Positions 34,208-43,332 of a DNA stretch of 64,000 nt are shown in pieces. Each line of letters opens with the position of its first letter. Position 1 is the first letter of the stretch. Position numbers and translations under genes: made by a program. Below the pieces are notes generated by a model, which saw only the letters and a list, made by a program, of their open reading frames with translations, had not been told where the DNA came from and searched no databases. The stretch spans positions 144,821 through 208,820 of the forward strand of contig JBBAPZ010000004.1 in NCBI GenBank assembly GCA_040400605.1. The letters are read 5' to 3'. The stretch comes from Candidatus Sericytochromatia bacterium. GTDB lineage: Bacteria; Cyanobacteriota; Sericytochromatia; S15B-MN24; JAQBPE01.

Positions 34208-34321
34208 TCATCTAGTTTTGCGGATACGGTGATTAGCTTTATCAGCGACATAGATGTTCCATGCGCCGTCAACCGCCACACTACAAGCGTGATTGAATCG
34301 CGCCGCAGCGCCCGTGCCATT
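34208..34321 (-). pseudogene. Isolated NHL-repeat fragment
   Basis: Hand translation: [37 protein letters not shown]. No start codon or RBS; below the ORF-track length cutoff. Confidence 0.75.
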
Positions 34322-34633: not shown

Positions 34634-36907
34634 TTAACGGGTGACGGCCCCGGGGTTGGCTGCTCCTTGCTCAGACTCGCCATGAACGCGCGCAAGTTCC
34701 GTGATGTGCCAAGCTGCCACCAAATAAGGATATTTGGATTGACTGAATTCACCAGGAACCTGAAAGCCGAGGCGTAAAATCTGCTTCGCACGCGTGATGC
34801 CCACATACAGCAAACGCAAGCGCTCCGCCACCTGTTCAGCCGCTGCCACGGCAATGGGATCCGCCGCATCTGCCGATTCAGGCTGGGCCAGGCGTTTTAG
34901 AATATGCTCCACGAGCAGGAGGCGCTGATCACTCACCCGCGCCTGCTTGAGCTCCCACGGGTAATGCCGGGACTGGTTCAATCCTGGCAACCAGACACAG
35001 TCAAACTCCAATCCTTTGGCGCTATGCAGTGTCATGATGCGAACCGGCAACGGCTCTGTTGCATCAGCATCCGGCTCATCGGTCGTTTCATCACGCGACA
35101 CACGAAATATTCGTTGGGCACTGCCCTCAAAGTTGGTCATCGCCAACTCGGTAACAACGTCCTTGAGCCGATAGTCCGGATGTTGGTGCAACATCCGCCG
35201 AACCATCATGGCGATCGCCTCGGCCACACTCAGTTGATACGGGTCACGAAAATAGCAATCAGCCACCGCCGTGATGAGGTCAACCGGAGACAGATGCCGA
35301 CGATGCAAGAGCACCCCCGCCTGCCTGACAAACTCAAGCCATGCCGCCCACACACCGGGCTCACGTGGCCATTCGTATCCGGTTATCGGGTAAAGCACAC
35401 CATCCGGGTTCAACAGTTTGCGCCAATCCACGCGCCGCTGCGTGATAAACACCAGTAGCGCGCCACGAAGGTCCTCCAGTTGCTTGTCCCAACGACTCAA
35501 GTGATGGATGCCTCGCCAGTAAGCCACAAACGCATCGACCAATGCCCGCCTGTAACCATCGGAGTCCGTGTCAATCGCCAAAAAACGCAGCACGTGCAGA
35601 ACAACTTCCGCGCACACACGCACTTCTTCATTTGACGCACCATCGGCCACAACCGGCACATCAAGAGCCAGCAATGCCTTCCGGTATGATTCAACCTGCT
35701 CATGCGTCTGAACCAAAATGGCCTGCGACAACGGACGACCATCTGGCCGGAAGGCCTGCGCCTGTGCGACCCCCTTGGCGATCGCCTGGATTTCATCATC
35801 CTTGGTCCCTTCAGTGGGCAACCACTTCACGGCGCCACGCCGCGACACGGGATTGGAACCATCTGCCGCCACTTCAATCAAATGTGCGCGAAATGCGTTT
35901 TGGCGCACATGCTCATCCGGGTGTGAACGCGCCACCAGCGTGACCAAACCGTTCGCAAGATCCAAAATCGACTGACAACTGCGCGACGACTCGGTCATCG
36001 AAATCATCGGCACCGTTTCACAAAATTCGCGAAAATAACGCGGATCATTCATCGTGAACGACGCATAAATCGATTGGTTGGCATCCCCAACCCGCACCAA
36101 ATTGCCGTGGCGCGCCACGATCTGATCAATCAGGCGCTTCTGCCCAGGCGTTGAATCTTGCGCCTCATCCTCCAACACATAACGGTAACAATCCTGCAAA
36201 CGCCCCAGCACGCCAGCGTCACGGCTCAGCAATACATTCACCATCAAGACAAGTTCGTCATAATCCAAGGCACCCCGCCGCCGACGCTCCGCTTCATAGT
36301 GCGTGATCATGGCCGGCACCTCCGATAAACCGTGCTGGTTCAACGCCTCACACACCTCTACTTGAGACAGCATCAGATTCTTCATGACGGCCAACGCTTT
36401 AAGTGCCACCAGGCGTGAACGTTCCATCGCTTTTAATGTGGGGTCAATCGCCTCAGGAGCGTCCGCATCCAGGCCCGCACGCACGCGCCAGTCACGCCGA
36501 TTGACCGGATCAGCCAGATACCCATTCAAAGCCTGCTGCAAAATTGCCTCGCGCTCGCGTTCCTGCAACACCTCGAAACCTGGTAGAAGCCCGATCCGCG
36601 CCCCATAGCGCGTCAACACCTCGTGGCAAAAGCTATGAATGGTCACAGCCTTGATACCATGTGATGGAATCCCATCCGCTTCGAGTGCACGGCGAATCCG
36701 TTCACGGATATTGGTTGCAGCCGACCGTGTGTAGGTAAGAATCAACAGTTGGCCAGGTCGTGCACCCAAGTCCTTGATGAGCCGTGTTGCAAGCATCACA
36801 AGCGCCGTCGTTTTACCCGCACCAGGCACCGCGGCAACCGCCAAGGCGCCCCCTGTATACTCAAGTATCGCTTGTTGTGCCCGTCGCGGCTGCATGGCCA
36901 TCATCAC
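34634..36907 (-). CDS. UvrD/Rep-type SF1A ATP-dependent DNA helicase
   Basis: AVPGAGKT (motif I), LTYT..AA (Ia), TIHSF, LEDEAQD (II), VGDANQSIY (III), SR (IV), MTLHSAKGLEFD (V), RLLYVGITRA (VI). Confidence 0.95.
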   Translation of the reverse strand: MMMAMQPRRAQQAILEYTGGALAVAAVPGAGKTTALVMLATRLIKDLGARPGQLLILTYTRSAATNIRERIRRALEADGIPSHGIKAVTIHSFCHEVLTRYGARIGLLPGFEVLQEREREAILQQALNGYLADPVNRRDWRVRAGLDADAPEAIDPTLKAMERSRLVALKALAVMKNLMLSQVEVCEALNQHGLSEVPAMITHYEAERRRRGALDYDELVLMVNVLLSRDAGVLGRLQDCYRYVLEDEAQDSTPGQKRLIDQIVARHGNLVRVGDANQSIYASFTMNDPRYFREFCETVPMISMTESSRSCQSILDLANGLVTLVARSHPDEHVRQNAFRAHLIEVAADGSNPVSRRGAVKWLPTEGTKDDEIQAIAKGVAQAQAFRPDGRPLSQAILVQTHEQVESYRKALLALDVPVVADGASNEEVRVCAEVVLHVLRFLAIDTDSDGYRRALVDAFVAYWRGIHHLSRWDKQLEDLRGALLVFITQRRVDWRKLLNPDGVLYPITGYEWPREPGVWAAWLEFVRQAGVLLHRRHLSPVDLITAVADCYFRDPYQLSVAEAIAMMVRRMLHQHPDYRLKDVVTELAMTNFEGSAQRIFRVSRDETTDEPDADATEPLPVRIMTLHSAKGLEFDCVWLPGLNQSRHYPWELKQARVSDQRLLLVEHILKRLAQPESADAADPIAVAAAEQVAERLRLLYVGITRAKQILRLGFQVPGEFSQSKYPYLVAAWHITELARVHGESEQGAANPGAVTR

Positions 36908-36913
36908 CTCAAC

Positions 36914-37750
36914 TCACAACGAGACCGGCTCATCGTCGAATTCGTACTCTGGTAACAACGCCAGGTAATCATCCGGGCCCACCTCGGGAACATCGTCGTC
37001 CGCTACCTGCTCTTCAATGCGCATGTCAGCCAGATGACACAACGAATAGAAACGACAAGGCGCAGGCTTTAAACACCGCTGACCCTGCTTGCCCGTCGGC
37101 TCGTATCCGGACCGCGCCATCGACGCCATTACCCGCAGCAAATTCGACCGAACCCCCTCATGTCGCTCACTGTCATGCTGGATGACGACTTCCTGTCCGT
37201 GCTCAACATAGTAAAAGACCATTTTGATGGCCTCCGGTGCGATCGCCACCCCCCCGTTCAGCGCGCTACCCACCTCAGCCAAAACAAAAGGGTACAACAA
37301 CGCTTGCCAATCATCTGCCAGAACGCGCGCATCAGGTAACCGTTCACTCGTTTTCCAATCCACAATCACAAACTCGGAACCACGCTGAATCACGCGATCA
37401 AACGTCGCACGAACAACCATATCCCCCACCGAAGCGCTCAAGTGCAGCTCGGAATGGACAGGTCCGTCCAGCGCCGCATATGCACTGGCTCGATAACGTT
37501 CAAACCACCGCCGCAAATCCGGATCCGTACGCGCCAACGATCGCGGATCAAGCCCCAGCGCATGTTGGTGAATCAGGTGGTGCAATTGTGTGCCCAGAGA
37601 CGTTCGCCGTTCGCTCAATTGCGGGTCCGTGCCTTGCGGCCCCGGCCAGGGCATCGGATGAATGTAAGTAAACGCGAACAGCCGCTCGCAACGATCCCAC
37701 GCGCGCAAACCCGTCGCCGACAATACCAAGGCATGCGATTCACCCGTCAC
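36914..37750 (-). CDS. Stand-alone PD-(D/E)XK nuclease (RecB/AddB/Cas4-like) with a putative Fe-S cluster
   Basis: LSAT...C(21), GTQLH, E..., TFDRV, IVDWKT, QALLY, and C-terminal C-x5-C-x5-C. Confidence 0.9.
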   Translation of the reverse strand: MTGESHALVLSATGLRAWDRCERLFAFTYIHPMPWPGPQGTDPQLSERRTSLGTQLHHLIHQHALGLDPRSLARTDPDLRRWFERYRASAYAALDGPVHSELHLSASVGDMVVRATFDRVIQRGSEFVIVDWKTSERLPDARVLADDWQALLYPFVLAEVGSALNGGVAIAPEAIKMVFYYVEHGQEVVIQHDSERHEGVRSNLLRVMASMARSGYEPTGKQGQRCLKPAPCRFYSLCHLADMRIEEQVADDDVPEVGPDDYLALLPEYEFDDEPVSL

Positions 37751-39885
37751 AGCGAGACCTCCGTGGCAGTCCCATTGGCGATCGCCCGGGTGGCGTGCGC
37801 AAACTCAGCGAACCAACCCAACAACTCACCCGACAACTCCGCCCCATCCGACCCGTGATCGGATGCGAACACATCCAGCCCAACGCGACACTTCGACACG
37901 ATTGCTCTCAGCGTACGTCCCAGTTTTAACGCCTGATCACGCTGATCATGGTCTTCTGTGTACATCCCTTCATCCCAATTGCGCGACAACACCCGCGGAT
38001 TGATAAACTCGCGGATATCCGACTTCCACCACAAAGGCGACGCCACATCCACCCACAATTGATGAGCGACTGGCGCGCCCTCTTCGGCATATTTGGCTGC
38101 CGTGTACAGCGTTACTGCCGCAGGCAAACTGCCACGCGGAATCAACGGACGTTCGGCCAGTTCTCCCGCATAAATGGATCGTAGAAAACGTTTGGGATCC
38201 CCCGCGCTGCCCTCCCCCAAAGCCGCCATCAAATGACGATGGGTGCGCGCATTCTGGATCAATTGATCGATCTGCAACACATCCATCGCCACATCCGCTG
38301 ACTTCAAGCTCCCAGCTTCCCCTTTCACGCCATCCGGCGCCAAACCAAGCAGACATCGAGGGGCATACACCTGCGCGAATGCCTGCTCCAACAGCACATC
38401 CAATGGCGCTTCGCTTTCGCACATCTGCTTGACCCACCCGTAAAGACCGTCATACGACGCCCGTCGGTTCTCAAGCAAACGCGGCCAATTCACCGTATCC
38501 GCGACGTTCAGTTGCCCATCCTGATAAACACCCCGCTGCACGTGCGGCGATTCCAAAGGATGCAGATTCAACAACGTTTCAAGCATCTCCGTGACATCCG
38601 CTTCTGGCGGCGGCATCTGCCATTGGGGGCGTGCCAGACGAACCAGCGTCGTCAACACCCGGACGGGCCGGTGATCCACCACACGATTCGTTCCAGTCAA
38701 CACCCTTAAGGGCAAACCATCCTGGGCCAGCCCCTCGCGCAAATGCCAAAGTAACAAAGGGTCCACCATCGGCGCGATCACCACGATTTGCTGCGACGGA
38801 ACACCCTGCGCCACCAGCGCGCGAACCCGTGCGATCAGTACATCGAACATCTGCACCCGCAACACACAAGACGGATGCAAACTTAAAATCGACCGTTTCC
38901 CACTCGGATTGACCGAAGCCGCCGCTTCATCCACCGCCCGCGCATACAGGTAATCAGCAAGGCTCGCAGCCGGCAAAGCGGCTTCTGAAATCATCAAGTA
39001 ACGTTCTTCAAAGCCCTGACTCAATGCCCGCGCACCCACCGGATCACCACCCAAATACTCCCGCAAGCCACCAAGCGGATTGCAAGCCACCAACACACTC
39101 CGTGCCTTTTTACTCACGTGATCAATCACCCGCAACGCGACCGGACAGCACTCTTCAAAATCATCCACCAAAACGTGCTGGGTATGCGCCGCCAAACGCT
39201 GCAAGTAACCACGATGATTCAGTAAAGCCAACGTAAACAATTCGAGCTGCAAGGCATGATCCAACACCCGATAAGTCATGCAACGCGAGCGGTAAGCCGC
39301 AATCGCTTCAGCAATATACACATGGAATGCCTGCGACTGCGGCCCCGCATCATGACAGGCGTTTAAACGGGGCAACACCGTGTCATACGGCAGACCGTGC
39401 TCGATCACCCGCGCATACGCATCCAATACCTGGACCCGCCGCATCGCAGGCGCTGTAAAACTTTCGGCAAGAACATCGTGTTTTGGGTCAATCTCCGCGC
39501 AGCAATCAGACAAAATATGTTGCGCAGCCATCAAACCAATAAAAAACGGCCTCGCTTGCGGCGGTTTGCCTGGTAATACACCACTGCTTTCAACCAACGC
39601 CCAGTTTTGCATTAACTCTTGCCGAACCCACGAACGAAATGTCATCACGGTCGCGTTAACACCCCGGTGATTCCAATCGCGAATGACCTGTTGCCAATGC
39701 TGTACCGCCTGCTGGTTCGACACCCACACCACTACGCCAGTTGGAAATTCTCCAGACTGTAACAACTGCCGAAAACGCATCAACAGCACGCCGGTCTTGC
39801 CACTGCCTGGCGGCCCGTTCAAAACCCTGGGAGGATGCGACAAATCAGTGCTCCACCCATCTAACACGCCGTCAGCCCCACTCAC
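37747..39885 (-). CDS. Degenerate SF1-helicase-like protein (AddB/RecC-like scaffold, no nuclease domain)
   Basis: Walker A GPPGSGKT and Walker-B-like VLVDDFEE, plus IVVIAP; motifs III, V and VI are not recognisable. GTGA overlap with the nuclease gene. Confidence 0.75.
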   Translation of the reverse strand: MSGADGVLDGWSTDLSHPPRVLNGPPGSGKTGVLLMRFRQLLQSGEFPTGVVVWVSNQQAVQHWQQVIRDWNHRGVNATVMTFRSWVRQELMQNWALVESSGVLPGKPPQARPFFIGLMAAQHILSDCCAEIDPKHDVLAESFTAPAMRRVQVLDAYARVIEHGLPYDTVLPRLNACHDAGPQSQAFHVYIAEAIAAYRSRCMTYRVLDHALQLELFTLALLNHRGYLQRLAAHTQHVLVDDFEECCPVALRVIDHVSKKARSVLVACNPLGGLREYLGGDPVGARALSQGFEERYLMISEAALPAASLADYLYARAVDEAAASVNPSGKRSILSLHPSCVLRVQMFDVLIARVRALVAQGVPSQQIVVIAPMVDPLLLWHLREGLAQDGLPLRVLTGTNRVVDHRPVRVLTTLVRLARPQWQMPPPEADVTEMLETLLNLHPLESPHVQRGVYQDGQLNVADTVNWPRLLENRRASYDGLYGWVKQMCESEAPLDVLLEQAFAQVYAPRCLLGLAPDGVKGEAGSLKSADVAMDVLQIDQLIQNARTHRHLMAALGEGSAGDPKRFLRSIYAGELAERPLIPRGSLPAAVTLYTAAKYAEEGAPVAHQLWVDVASPLWWKSDIREFINPRVLSRNWDEGMYTEDHDQRDQALKLGRTLRAIVSKCRVGLDVFASDHGSDGAELSGELLGWFAEFAHATRAIANGTATEVSL

Positions 39886-39972
39886 GGTCGCACCGCCGCC
39901 CCAACTCTGAGCGCTACCCCGACAACCTGCCCAAGCGACCCGGTACGGAGGAAAAAGCCTGCTCTAAAAACC

Positions 39973-41718
39973 TCACCCATGCCCATGCCCTCCACCAAAC
40001 GATGGCGACGCGGCAAGGTGTCTGGCCTGGGCCGGCAAGATATGCTCGGCACGAAGCCGTAATAAAGTAGCGCCACTAAAAAAATCCGTTGCCCGTTCCA
40101 GATGAAACAACACATCAACCCGCTCCGGCAGAGGCGCCAAATGTCCCTTGAACCACCCCACCAACTCAAGATCATGTCGCACCTTGCCGAATAAATGCCC
40201 CTTTTGAACACGCACGGCATCAATCGCCACATTCTCAAGTGCCAGCAATGGACGCGGATTCTCTTGACCGTGCGGCTCCAGCAACTCCAACGCATCCATC
40301 AGCGCCGAATCAATCTCATCAACCGTGACAACTGCTGCAACAATCGGCAAGGCAGTCCCCACGCGCCAGCCAGTCTGATTCAATGCATCATTGAGACAAT
40401 CGCGAAACGCATCAAGATGATGTTTCTCCACCGCACAGCCAGCCGCCTGCGCATGCCCACCCCAACGGGTCATCAGTGCATCCGCATGCGACAGCAAGCC
40501 GACGAGATCAACACCCTTCGGCGCCCGCGCAGAGCCGCGGTACAATTCCGGTTCGTGTTCTTCTTGCCCCAATAACACCACCGGCCGCCCAAAGTCTTGC
40601 AAGACTTTGCCCGCAACCAAACCCACCAAGCCGTGATGCCAACCGACACCATCCAACACGATGAAGGGGTACCGTTCAGGTGGCATTTCGCGTTCAATAC
40701 GCCCCCGCACCTCCTCATACAACGCCTTGGTAACGTCCTTGCGGGTCGCGTTCAACTGGACCAGATGTGCTGCCCGTCGCTCCGCAAACTGGCGGTCATC
40801 CGTCACCAACAATTCATAGGCCAGGGCCGGGTGTTCCAAACGTCCCGCAGCGTTCACCATCGGTGCGATCACAAAACCGAGATCCTGCGCCGTCACGTGA
40901 CGCACCGGGTACTTGGGATTCGCGGCATTGTGCGCATCAAGCAAAGCCTGGGCACCCACCCGTTTATGATTCAGATTCCAGCGTTTCAACCCCAGATGCA
41001 CCAACGCACGGTTGTAGTCCGTGAGCGGGACCATGTCACCCAGTGTACCGATGCAAGCCAGGTCCAACAATTGCCCCGCACGGCGCAGATCGTGGTCACT
41101 CAGCACCACACACAGCATCAAGGCCACGCCTGCTCCCGAAAGCGCTGCGTATTCCGGAAAATCAACCTTGGGGTGAACCAGGGCCAACGCATCAGGCAAG
41201 TCGCCTTTGGCACTGTGATGGTCCGTCACAATCAGATCAATGCCGTGCGCACGACACGCACGCGCCGCCTCCACCGCCGTAATGCCATTGTCTGTGGTGA
41301 CAATGAGCGTGGTGCCTGCCGCAGCCAGTTCCGGAATCACCGAAGCGTTGAGTCCGTAGCCTTCCTTGAAACGACTGGGCAAAAACACGTGTGAATCCAA
41401 CTGCATGCCCACTTTAAAGTACCGTTGCAGAATACTCGCGCCACTCACCCCATCCGCATCGTAATCTCCGTAAATGACCACCCGTTCGTCGGCCGCCTGG
41501 GCCTCTCGCAAGCGCTGCACGGCTTTAATCATATGGGGCGAAGGCTTGAACGCCGCCATCCAGCCAAGATCACCCCTGGCATACAACCAACGCTGCGCAT
41601 CCTCCGCGCAGTTGGCACCCATCTGCGCGAGGACTTGCCCCAAAATCCGCGGCAACTGCAAGCGCCGCGAGATGTCGCGCGCCGCGCGCTCGTTCGTTTC
41701 TGCGAGTATCCAACCCAT
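39973..41718 (-). CDS. recJ: Single-stranded-DNA-specific exonuclease RecJ
   Basis: YGDYDADG, R.KEGYGL, TTDNG, TDHH, GTLGDMVPL, NAAGRL, WHHG..GLVAG, GSAR, GGHAQAAG, PHGQENP.P. Confidence 0.95.
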   Translation of the reverse strand: MGWILAETNERAARDISRRLQLPRILGQVLAQMGANCAEDAQRWLYARGDLGWMAAFKPSPHMIKAVQRLREAQAADERVVIYGDYDADGVSGASILQRYFKVGMQLDSHVFLPSRFKEGYGLNASVIPELAAAGTTLIVTTDNGITAVEAARACRAHGIDLIVTDHHSAKGDLPDALALVHPKVDFPEYAALSGAGVALMLCVVLSDHDLRRAGQLLDLACIGTLGDMVPLTDYNRALVHLGLKRWNLNHKRVGAQALLDAHNAANPKYPVRHVTAQDLGFVIAPMVNAAGRLEHPALAYELLVTDDRQFAERRAAHLVQLNATRKDVTKALYEEVRGRIEREMPPERYPFIVLDGVGWHHGLVGLVAGKVLQDFGRPVVLLGQEEHEPELYRGSARAPKGVDLVGLLSHADALMTRWGGHAQAAGCAVEKHHLDAFRDCLNDALNQTGWRVGTALPIVAAVVTVDEIDSALMDALELLEPHGQENPRPLLALENVAIDAVRVQKGHLFGKVRHDLELVGWFKGHLAPLPERVDVLFHLERATDFFSGATLLRLRAEHILPAQARHLAASPSFGGGHGHG

Positions 41719-42169: not shown

Positions 42170-43332
42170 TACCGTTGATAGTGATGGGCCGGATTCGGGC
42201 ATTACCCGTATCTGCAACATATATGGCACCGGAGGTATCGACAGCCACGCCAACAGGGTCTATCATACCGCGCCGCCGTTCCAGAATCATCAACATAACC
42301 CGGAGCCAAACCGGCTAAGGTGCTAACACGACCCTCGGGCGTGATTTTTCTGATTCGGTGGTTGTCAGTGTCAGTCAAATCGTTGTTGCCGTCGTTGTCC
42401 AACGCCAATTTTGTAGGGGAGTTAAACTGAGCCATGGCGCCGATATCGTCTGCATCACCTTCGACAGCCCCAGCGACTGTCGTTACCTCGACAGAGGGAA
42501 GAGGTTGTGACGCAGTCGCGTTGGGCAATACACTTTGGGATAGCTGCGCAGATTTTGAGCGATCGCTTCCATACCTTCCGATACCTTGGACACGTCATCA
42601 GCCAACAACTTCAGATCTTTCTCGAGTTGCCGTTCGTTTAAACGATTAACGGGCATCATCAGGTGTCAATGCTCGCGCAACGTCCACTACCAGTTGTTGA
42701 TAAGCGGATTCGTTCAAACGCCCCCAAAGACCCTGAGCCGTTTGCTTCAATTGCGTCAGCGCAAGCGTGCGCGCATCGGACACCGTCGTATCGGTCTCCG
42801 ATGCTGCCAATACCGAAACCTGAATTTTTCCTTTGGCCGTTAGTCGCGATGCAACAACTGTATGGGTCAGTCCGACAGGACCCTCCTGTGATGCGATAGC
42901 GTCCGGATGCATCCGTATTAACAGGCTTGATGGCCTCAAATACTTTTCCTGAAGCACAATCGGCATACCAGCCAATGGTTGCTCTTCAAAAGGCTGTGCG
43001 ACATCGCTCGCCTGTAACAATGCGCTTCCTATCGCGTTCCTATCTTGGAATCCACACGCGTTATCTGTAATCAGTCTACTCGCGTTGTTGGCAGTCAAGG
43101 CACCCCCAGTCTGAGTCACCAAACTGCTTTGCAGGAGCACGTGATCTTTCAGCGTCATCACTGGTAAGCGTTTCGGATCTGTATTGAATGTCGGCCGTGC
43201 AACAAGTCCTTCGTTATCAGTTACAACAGAACCGAGCGGTGAGGTACCCACGCACGCTGGAAGTGCCAACAAAGCAACCGTAATCAGCCAATGATAGCAA
43301 CGGTTTGACCTCACTATCGGCACACCGCACAC
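42156..43332 (-). pseudogene. Frameshifted lipoprotein gene with degenerate NNGG-type repeats and C-terminal NHL repeats
   Basis: ORF 43332-42646 has a lipobox (LPAC) and LVTQTGG/LTANNAS/LITDNAC. After frameshifts near 42650, 42530 and 42260 it continues RLNERQLEKDLKLL..., VTTVAG...AQFNSP..LALDNDGN...DTDNHRIRKI and PVGVAVDTSGAIYVADTGNARIR. Confidence 0.75.

Follow-up and report, generated by a model that had tools for sequence, protein, structure and literature searches.

A Conserved Set of Two Helicase-Fold Proteins, a Nuclease, and RecJ as a Candidate AddAB/AdnAB-Like Module of Separate Chains

What might four clustered genes for two helicase-fold proteins, a stand-alone nuclease, and RecJ do together? 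The set lies in a 64,000-nucleotide (nt) stretch of contig JBBAPZ010000004.1 from a Candidatus Sericytochromatia bacterium (hereafter the window), at positions 34634..41718 with all four open reading frames (ORFs) on the minus strand. It encodes RecJ, a degenerate helicase-fold protein of superfamily 1 (SF1; the dead helicase), a nuclease of the PD-(D/E)XK type, and an intact SF1A helicase (the motor). The four products probably cooperate in unwinding and degrading DNA, as an AddAB/AdnAB-like module of separate chains. We draw this from gene linkage, a natural fusion, joint loss, fold and motif status, and a shared knockout phenotype.

A 2025 paper reported that most cyanobacteria are without RecBCD and AddAB and that the origin of Argonaute guides there is unclear (PMC12094033). 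The module, present in nearly all sampled cyanobacterial genomes save a RecC-bearing family and three small groups, is a candidate for the missing end-processing system. The genes involved are nonessential and have known phenotypes in Synechococcus elongatus (0992, 2515, 2273, and 0517), with named Synechocystis counterparts (sll1516, sll1121, and slr0479), and the knockouts point to higher transformation and plasmid maintenance in laboratory cyanobacteria. In what follows, survey labels beginning with f, g, G, L, and P denote a family, genus, genome, fetched locus, and protein, respectively.

Gene Linkage and Natural Fusion

Linkage was sampled at 20 loci around relatives, 17 from the same order and 3 from other orders of the class. 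All four genes lie together at 13 of the 17 same-order loci; 1 of the 17 is without recJ in the fetched DNA, and at the remaining 3 the contig edge comes after the motor. The common order is dead helicase, motor, nuclease, recJ (12 of those 13 loci), and the gene order of the window is a rearrangement of it. At the three loci from other orders the dead helicase stands alone or beside recJ. In Bacillota, the four genes occur in the common order at 10 of 13 loci, the other 3 being cut by contig ends, and together with the same-order loci these bear out the co-conservation on which the initial annotation, a proposal of a split AddAB-like machine, had depended. Two loci from Peptococcaceae records (L202 and L203) have the dead helicase and recJ fragmented and the motor and nuclease whole, through either decay or assembly error.

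In family f9, the dead helicase and then the motor are encoded in one ORF of ~1,250 to 1,480 amino acids (aa) at every one of the 26 loci sampled from 82 genomes (one locus is truncated at the contig edge), and the nuclease lies directly behind the fused ORF in 24 of the 26. Similar long proteins carry the name of Melainabacteria, to which f9 would thus belong. This natural fusion favors an association of the dead helicase with the motor. AlphaFold, given 1,200 residues of one such fusion, folded both halves (mean predicted local distance difference test [pLDDT] score, 75.8; predicted template modeling [pTM] score, 0.57), with a low-confidence linker at residues 589-623 and the relative position of the halves not fixed. 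Complex prediction for motor residues 1-720 with nuclease residues 1-250, its tail cut and the dead helicase left out, scored 0.00 in two runs, which we weigh neither for nor against a contact.

The dead helicase, motor, and nuclease genes are scattered in oxygenic cyanobacteria. Among 20 cyanobacterial loci picked across families, 8 have recJ after the nuclease, 7 of these 8 from one family; G149 has this arrangement too, and the RecJ encoded there clusters with the 0517 type (100/100).

Fold and Motif Status of the Four Proteins

The dead helicase has a Walker A motif (GPPGSGKT), an altered Walker B motif (VDDFEE), and a Pfam UvrD-helicase match (E value, 3.7e-7). A conserved block, GGLREYLGGDP (residues 272-282), aligns with the motif III position of the motor, suggesting that motif III is a remnant minus its Gln rather than wholly absent. 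The degeneracy first described, which already took in motif VI, extends to an altered Walker B, with the correction that motif III may have left a remnant. Across the family (453 clusters at an E value of 1e-30) the Walker B consensus is D-N-x-E-E. Among the matches listed, 143 members exceed 600 aa; Walker A is retained in 114 of them, DExQD occurs in 2, and motif VI in 0; Walker A is found in 0 of 20 fusions of dead helicase and motor. We consider the protein catalytically dead because the catalytic Walker B Glu and motif VI are missing, and by its motifs it is a dead helicase comparable to the N-terminal part of AddB.

The AlphaFold model of the dead helicase (pLDDT, 88; pTM, 0.87; 25 sequences) matches UvrD, PcrA, AdnA, AdnB, AddA, AddB, and RecB over its whole length in structure comparison, so that the SF1 fold supposed by the initial annotation appears complete in the model. 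UvrD gave the top Z score (Z, 27.8; root mean square deviation [rmsd], 8.9; 560 positions aligned) and AdnB the lowest whole-length rmsd (Z, 23.7; rmsd, 4.2 [4.0-4.4]; ~610 aligned), with further matches to AdnA (Z, 22.8; rmsd, 5.3; 572 aligned), AddA (Z, 22.0; rmsd, 5.1), and AddB (Z, 22.0; rmsd, 5.5; 600 aligned); RecC was not among the best 50 entries. The profile of the dead helicase aligns with that of the neighboring motor (419 columns; probability, 96%).

A tie to AddB at the level of sequence or profile was not detected: ADDB_N had no significant match in the dead helicase (E value, 0.066) or in any of 25 family members at an E value of 0.01, and there was no profile match to the AddB-like protein of the source genome itself (probability, 2.6%). 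PF04257 (RecC) likewise had no match in the protein. Databases name the family “recombinase family protein,” with Sll1516 as its Synechocystis member, and the closest named homologue comes from Candidatus Sericytochromatia, so that the phylum surveyed here is presumably the cyanobacterial one. One member, P0009 (1,025 aa), has a 290-residue N-terminal extension that is foreign to the module; its sequence is unrelated to either nuclease or motor.

The motor carries what we take to be SF1A motifs I (AVPGAGKT), Ia (TYTRSAA), Ib (TIHSF), II (DEAQD), III (GDANQSIY), IV (SSRS), V (TLHSAKGLEFD), and VI (LYVGITRAK, residue 700), with a Pfam UvrD-helicase match at an E value of 2.5e-45. As first described, the motif set is entire and the protein ends shortly after motif VI, with no nuclease domain; PF12705 was found by Pfam in neither helicase-fold protein, and the NCBIfam addA and recB scores are far under the cutoff. 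The motor family forms a clade apart from PcrA/UvrD and AddA (the branch leading to the PcrA/AddA outgroups has a support of 1.0). All its motifs are conserved, and we predict that the motor is an active SF1A helicase subunit.

The nuclease matches PF12705 (E value, 2.4e-19) and has exactly four Cys residues (21, 226, 232, and 238), in agreement with the one N-terminal and three C-terminal Cys (1+3 Cys) reported for it; these four, D118, and D131-W-K133 are invariant in 15 of 15 aligned relatives. The 1+3 Cys pattern is a predicted iron-sulfur (Fe-S) staple. Among cyanobacterial members, 16 of 20 have C-x2-C-x5-C. In some cyanobacterial nucleases, Synechocystis Slr0479 among them, only two of the three C-terminal Cys remain (Table 1), and the Fe-S staple of these proteins may be altered. 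The best solved relatives of the nuclease profile are the nuclease domains of AdnB (E value, 1.7e-5) and AdnA (E value, 1.2e-4), and ACE1 matches at an E value of 8e-5. No fusion of this subfamily to either helicase was found, a weak test; the best long matches, at E values of 2e-6 or worse, were of the AddA type only. The nuclease ends in [IV]xE[IV] in 19 of 20 cyanobacterial proteins (L171-L190) and in a P-x-F tail in same-order relatives, and this tail could be a docking peptide.

The window recJ matches TIGR00644 (E value, 3.4e-116), retains its Pfam domains and catalytic motifs, and is the single recJ match in the source genome. One-to-one orthology with S. elongatus recJcy 0517 did not find support: the tree places the same-class RecJs in a clade of their own, and BLAST scores lean slightly to the 1886 type over 0517 (20 rows).

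Distribution and Joint Loss

Surveys of RecBCD and AddAB distribution have reportedly been made by Cromie in 2009 and by Gurung and Blumenthal in 2020. We scored 201 genomes of the phylum that are at least 90% complete, 82 of them from one family, so that counts are nonindependent. Of these 201, 189 gave a match to the dead helicase, 172 one to the nuclease, and 186 one to the motor. These are undercounts (closer queries brought back G055, G061, and G063, and the nuclease is in fact present in five f9 genomes that had been counted as without it), and the motor threshold may let in a PcrA-type match, as it probably did in G135. Piwi matches occurred in 18 of the 201 genomes and not in the source genome, in a search that misses some known Argonautes.

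The dead helicase and nuclease are both absent from f25 (0/5), f27 (0/3), f29 (0/1), and g9 (0/2). In an enlarged f25 set, single-protein queries found the dead helicase in 0 of 41 and the nuclease in 0 of 41 genomes, and RecC in 39 of 41; this loss counts as one evolutionary event. Family f25 appears to be the picocyanobacteria, which are reported to carry recBCD (PMC5101192). An AddAB-like pair is present in g9. In f14 all 26 genomes carry the module, none of the 26 has RecC, and each gives a single strong PF12705 match. Synechocystis likewise yielded neither RecC nor a second strong PF12705 match. Neither the module nor RecC was found in G124, G146, G158, and G129; G124 and G146 likewise had no PF12705 match, so that these two yielded no end-processing enzyme of the kinds searched for.

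The source genome has no PF04257 match and encodes a separate addB-addA-like pair (867 aa and 1,077 aa). By eye, both C-terminal nucleases of this pair have the 1+3 Cys pattern. Two further stand-alone PF12705 nuclease genes occur in the same genome, on L042 (C24) and L044 (C20). In many f9 genomes an ORF of ~1,000 to 1,070 aa contains another PF12705 domain (Table 1), and this ORF is either of the AddAB type or the UvrD-Cas4 fusion of Hudaiberdiev 2017.

Published Genetics in Synechococcus elongatus

Taton 2023 (PMC10653904) screened 1,886 genes for mutants letting RSF1010 plasmids persist, with six hits: ago, rpoD2, cas4 (2273), uvrD (2515), recJcy (0517), and 0992. Reported fitness values were +2.24 for 0517, +2.26 for 0992, +2.39 for 2515, +3.39 for 2273, and +5.58 for ago, against -0.07 and 0.00 for the paralogues recJ 1886 and pcrA 2168. 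We mapped the loci through G212, a genome of the same genus, taking the best matches of three profiles and one of two RecJs. The match lengths equal those of the annotated genes 0992 (1,998 nt), 2515 (2,268), 2273 (768), and 0517 (2,328), the coordinate relation is constant, and back-searches of the 0992, 2515, and 2273 counterparts returned the window's genes as best matches. As lengths, coordinates, and back-searches agree, we count four of the six RSF1010 hits as the module: judged by sequence, 0992, 2515, 2273, and recJ 0517 are family members of the four window genes. The probability that all three named genes would land by chance among 6 hits out of 1,886 is 1.8e-8.

In Taton 2020 (PMC7125226) these four reappear in a group of 12 genes whose mutants gain in natural transformation, with values of +1.12 for 0517, +1.11 for 0992, +1.34 for 2515, +2.68 for 2273, and +5.16 for ago. 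The Taton papers treat the four as separate hits of unknown role and do not link them, and the main text of Taton 2023 leaves AddAB and RecBCD unmentioned (PMC10653904). Read as this module, the scattered, otherwise unconnected hits of two genetic screens become parts of one conserved operon. The functional link of the four genes that the initial annotation had supposed is upheld by published knockouts that share one phenotype class.

Conjugation into a neutral site gave mildly negative published values for mutants in the motor (-0.51; t, -4.9), in the dead helicase (-0.35), and in RecJ (-0.26), and -0.02 for the nuclease and -0.22 for addAB; these effects fall below the authors' threshold and are read without the population median. 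AdnAB motor and nuclease mutants are reported to show the same split (PMC5314763). According to Weiss 2022 (PMC9659335), all four transcripts rise 2 h after ultraviolet (UV) irradiation, with log2 changes of +0.57 to +1.66.

Taton describes 0992 as a PD-(D/E)XK-like hypothetical protein, annotated “pcx.” The label that Synpcc7942_0992 bears, “pcx, proton extrusion protein,” was apparently carried over from the neighboring 0991, and COG0210 and the profile match both point to a dead helicase.

Comparison with Known Systems

Like AddAB of Bacillus subtilis (PDB 3U44/4CEI), the module has one SF1A motor predicted to be live, one predicted inactive helicase-fold subunit whose model matches the AddA and AddB folds, and an Fe-S stapled PD-(D/E)XK nuclease, an AddAB feature (PMC12094033) that is predicted from Cys residues in the window. 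AddB is described as keeping Walker A while being unable to hydrolyze ATP (PMC5314763). Unlike AddAB, which has a nuclease fused to each subunit, the module has a single RecB-type nuclease rather than two, fused to neither helicase; RecJ is co-encoded with the module, and the module coexists with AddAB. AdnAB of Mycobacterium (PDB 6PPR/7SJR/9NP6) resembles it in having two whole UvrD-like subunits, AdnB being the lowest-rmsd fold and the AdnB and AdnA domains the best solved nuclease matches. By published descriptions, however, AdnA keeps its ATPase, whereas the window partner is degenerate, without the catalytic Glu and motif VI, and both AdnAB subunits carry fused nucleases, whereas the single nuclease of the module is free. 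In contrast to RecBCD, neither RecC (PF04257) nor RecD was found at the window locus.

ACE1 (PDB 9IAC/9IAB) resembles the window nuclease in size, in its 1+3 Cys, and in standing alone, but it is encoded with a long-A prokaryotic Argonaute (together APACE1) and no helicase partner (PMC12094033); the window locus has no Argonaute gene. Gabija shares a UvrD-type helicase in GajB, but no GajA-type match was found at the locus, where PADLOC (2023) returned only generic GajB/UvrD and weak Cas4 matches. Hudaiberdiev 2017 (PMC5704561) predicted a nondefense operon in Clostridiales with an unfused UvrD and a stand-alone pfam12705 nuclease, for which a repair role was suggested; the passages on this operon name neither a dead helicase nor RecJ. 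Compared by description, it is possibly part of the window's set. A preprint reports a fused addAB on a plasmid of Synechococcus PCC 7002.

Given the lack of fused nucleases, the module would work like AddAB/AdnAB yet stand outside them, and it is not RecBCD, Gabija, or APACE1. Comparison with NCBIfam, PADLOC, and the literature agrees that no characterized system covers the set. In the open literature (subscription papers lying outside the search) we found no published account of the four-gene system and no papers on sll1516.

A Model and Its Rivals

In the model that we favor, the motor would pair with the dead helicase, the latter in the role of the N-terminal part of AddB/AdnA, and the pair would load on a DNA end or fork and move 3' to 5'. 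The displaced strand would thread through the Fe-S nuclease while RecJ trims it from its 5' end, leaving a 3' tail for recombination at double-strand ends. Opening by motor and dead helicase is modeled by analogy with AdnAB, in which the motor is described as running 3' to 5' with the 5' strand threading through the partner's nuclease (PMC5314763). As there is no second RecB-type nuclease, the 3' strand would escape cutting; alternatively, the strands may be divided as the initial annotation proposed, RecJ taking the 5' strand and the nuclease the opposite one. Released fragments would destroy incoming DNA or, with Argonaute present, become guides, as RecBCD and AddAB supply them elsewhere (PMC12094033; reported also in PMC10269773). 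Fragments serving as guides would account for the partial ago-like phenotype, but guide supply cannot be the main role because Piwi matches are so few.

Several observations weigh against this cooperation. Among 80 metagenome loci of Chloroflexota type, mostly short, the motor was seen at 6, the nuclease at 3, and RecJ at 8; for the 15 whose flanks reach 4 kb or more on each side, the counts were 3, 1, and 4. Three cyanobacterial drafts (G173, G187, and G207) have the dead helicase and nuclease and no motor match, and the window RecJ lies outside the 0517 clade. The module coexists with canonical-type AddAB in the source genome and in S. elongatus, and RecC stands alongside it in 10 same-class genomes. 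Mutual exclusivity with recBCD/addAB, which had been proposed as a test, therefore fails in its strict form, and given this coexistence the module is not a simple replacement of either system. In the published data neither addAB gene (1156/1157) is a positive hit in the RSF1010 or transformation screen, and addAB loss brings no gain in foreign-DNA survival (-0.50/-0.58 and -1.01/-0.71); as this loss behaves differently, module and AddAB appear to differ in function. In both screens the nuclease knockout has a larger effect than the other three, and the nuclease therefore seems also to act without them. Weiss 2022 (PMC9659335) reports no UV fitness defect in the four mutants, which speaks against a UV role. 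Both positive screens pass through single-stranded intermediates, fitting the first rival below equally, and they come from S. elongatus rather than the source organism. The split AddAB-like machine first proposed is thus supported in part: conservation, SF1 fold, fusion, and shared phenotype speak for it, and exclusivity does not hold.

In the strongest rival, though an unlikely one in our judgment, the same proteins likewise act together, but what they work on and clear are intermediates with single or displaced strands (transforming DNA, replicons that copy by strand displacement, D-loops, and stalled forks), and not double-strand ends to be resected for repair. Strand displacement is how RSF1010 replicates, and this reading would explain positive phenotypes in natural transformation and with RSF1010 and, in the published data, none in neutral-site conjugation, as well as the lack of a UV defect and the coexistence with AddAB. 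ACE1, a stand-alone cyanobacterial relative in the Cas4 family, cuts single-stranded DNA only (PMC12094033). However, a dead and a live helicase with an Fe-S nuclease is the end-processing architecture of AddAB/AdnAB, the module was lost in the family that gained RecC (f25), and the motor, dead helicase, and RecJ have a mild pro-recombination effect.

We find it improbable that the four genes share a pathway without forming a stable multichain machine, the helicase-fold proteins pairing and the nuclease and RecJ acting downstream alone. Scattered genes in oxygenic cyanobacteria, the excess effect of the nuclease knockout, and the lack of nuclease-helicase fusions, weak as that test is, would suit such an arrangement, but nuclease frames overlap or abut in several phyla, the genes are lost jointly, and the nuclease has the conserved tail that might dock it. 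A dedicated anti-phage or Argonaute-accessory defense system, also raised by the initial annotation, is highly improbable: the knockouts phenocopy ago in direction and PADLOC gives GajB-type matches for the helicase domain, but those are generic UvrD matches without a partner gene, the neighbors are housekeeping genes at uniform GC, and near-universal single-copy presence (about 9 of 10 genomes, versus Piwi in 18 of 201 and none in the source genome) fits it poorly.

The AddAB/AdnAB-like module admits a bolder formulation, to which we give slightly less than an even chance: that a four-chain complex of dead helicase, motor, Fe-S nuclease, and RecJ constitutes a fourth bacterial helicase-nuclease class beside RecBCD, AddAB, and AdnAB. 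Such a complex would go back to the ancestor of the cyanobacterial phylum, occur also in parts of Bacillota and Chloroflexota, have given way to RecBCD in one cyanobacterial family, and serve both as the main end-processing enzyme of cyanobacteria reported to have none and as the source of Argonaute guides.

Locus Layout

The window genes lie where and as the initial annotation placed them, co-directional and with the same lengths (Table 1): 87 nt separate recJ from the dead helicase gene, which overlaps the nuclease gene by 4 nt, and 6 nt separate the nuclease and motor genes. The neighboring genes are housekeeping genes, and GC (guanine plus cytosine) content across the operon is uniform with its flanks. 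A promoter and terminator scan of the locus was uninformative, sites being rarer than in shuffles.

Table 1. Features of the locus and of compared genomes, with coordinates
Feature	Location	Strand	Description
recJ	39973..41718	-	581 aa; DHH + DHHA1 + OB single-strand exonuclease
Dead helicase (catalytically degenerate SF1 helicase-fold, predicted)	37747..39885	-	712 aa; family of Sll1516 / Synpcc7942_0992
Nuclease (stand-alone PD-(D/E)XK, 1+3 Cys)	36914..37750	-	278 aa; family of Slr0479 / Synpcc7942_2273 (“cas4”)
Motor (intact SF1A, 3'-5' type helicase, predicted)	34634..36907	-	757 aa; family of Sll1121 / Synpcc7942_2515 (“uvrD”)
Nuclease tail in the window	36914-36960
NHL-repeat remnant, upstream	42180-42528	-	Weak Pfam NHL match
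NHL-repeat remnant, downstream	34210-34290	-
addB-addA-like pair of source genome	L052 4140-6743 and 6744-9977 (C21)
Two-Cys nucleases	L114 4195-4917; L130, L132, L185, L186, L190
PF12705 domain in long f9 ORF (example)	G114:C22:6810-7556

Broken NHL-repeat remnants lie on either side of the operon; reading frames were examined for both, and they may be scars of the rearrangement behind the unusual gene order of the window.

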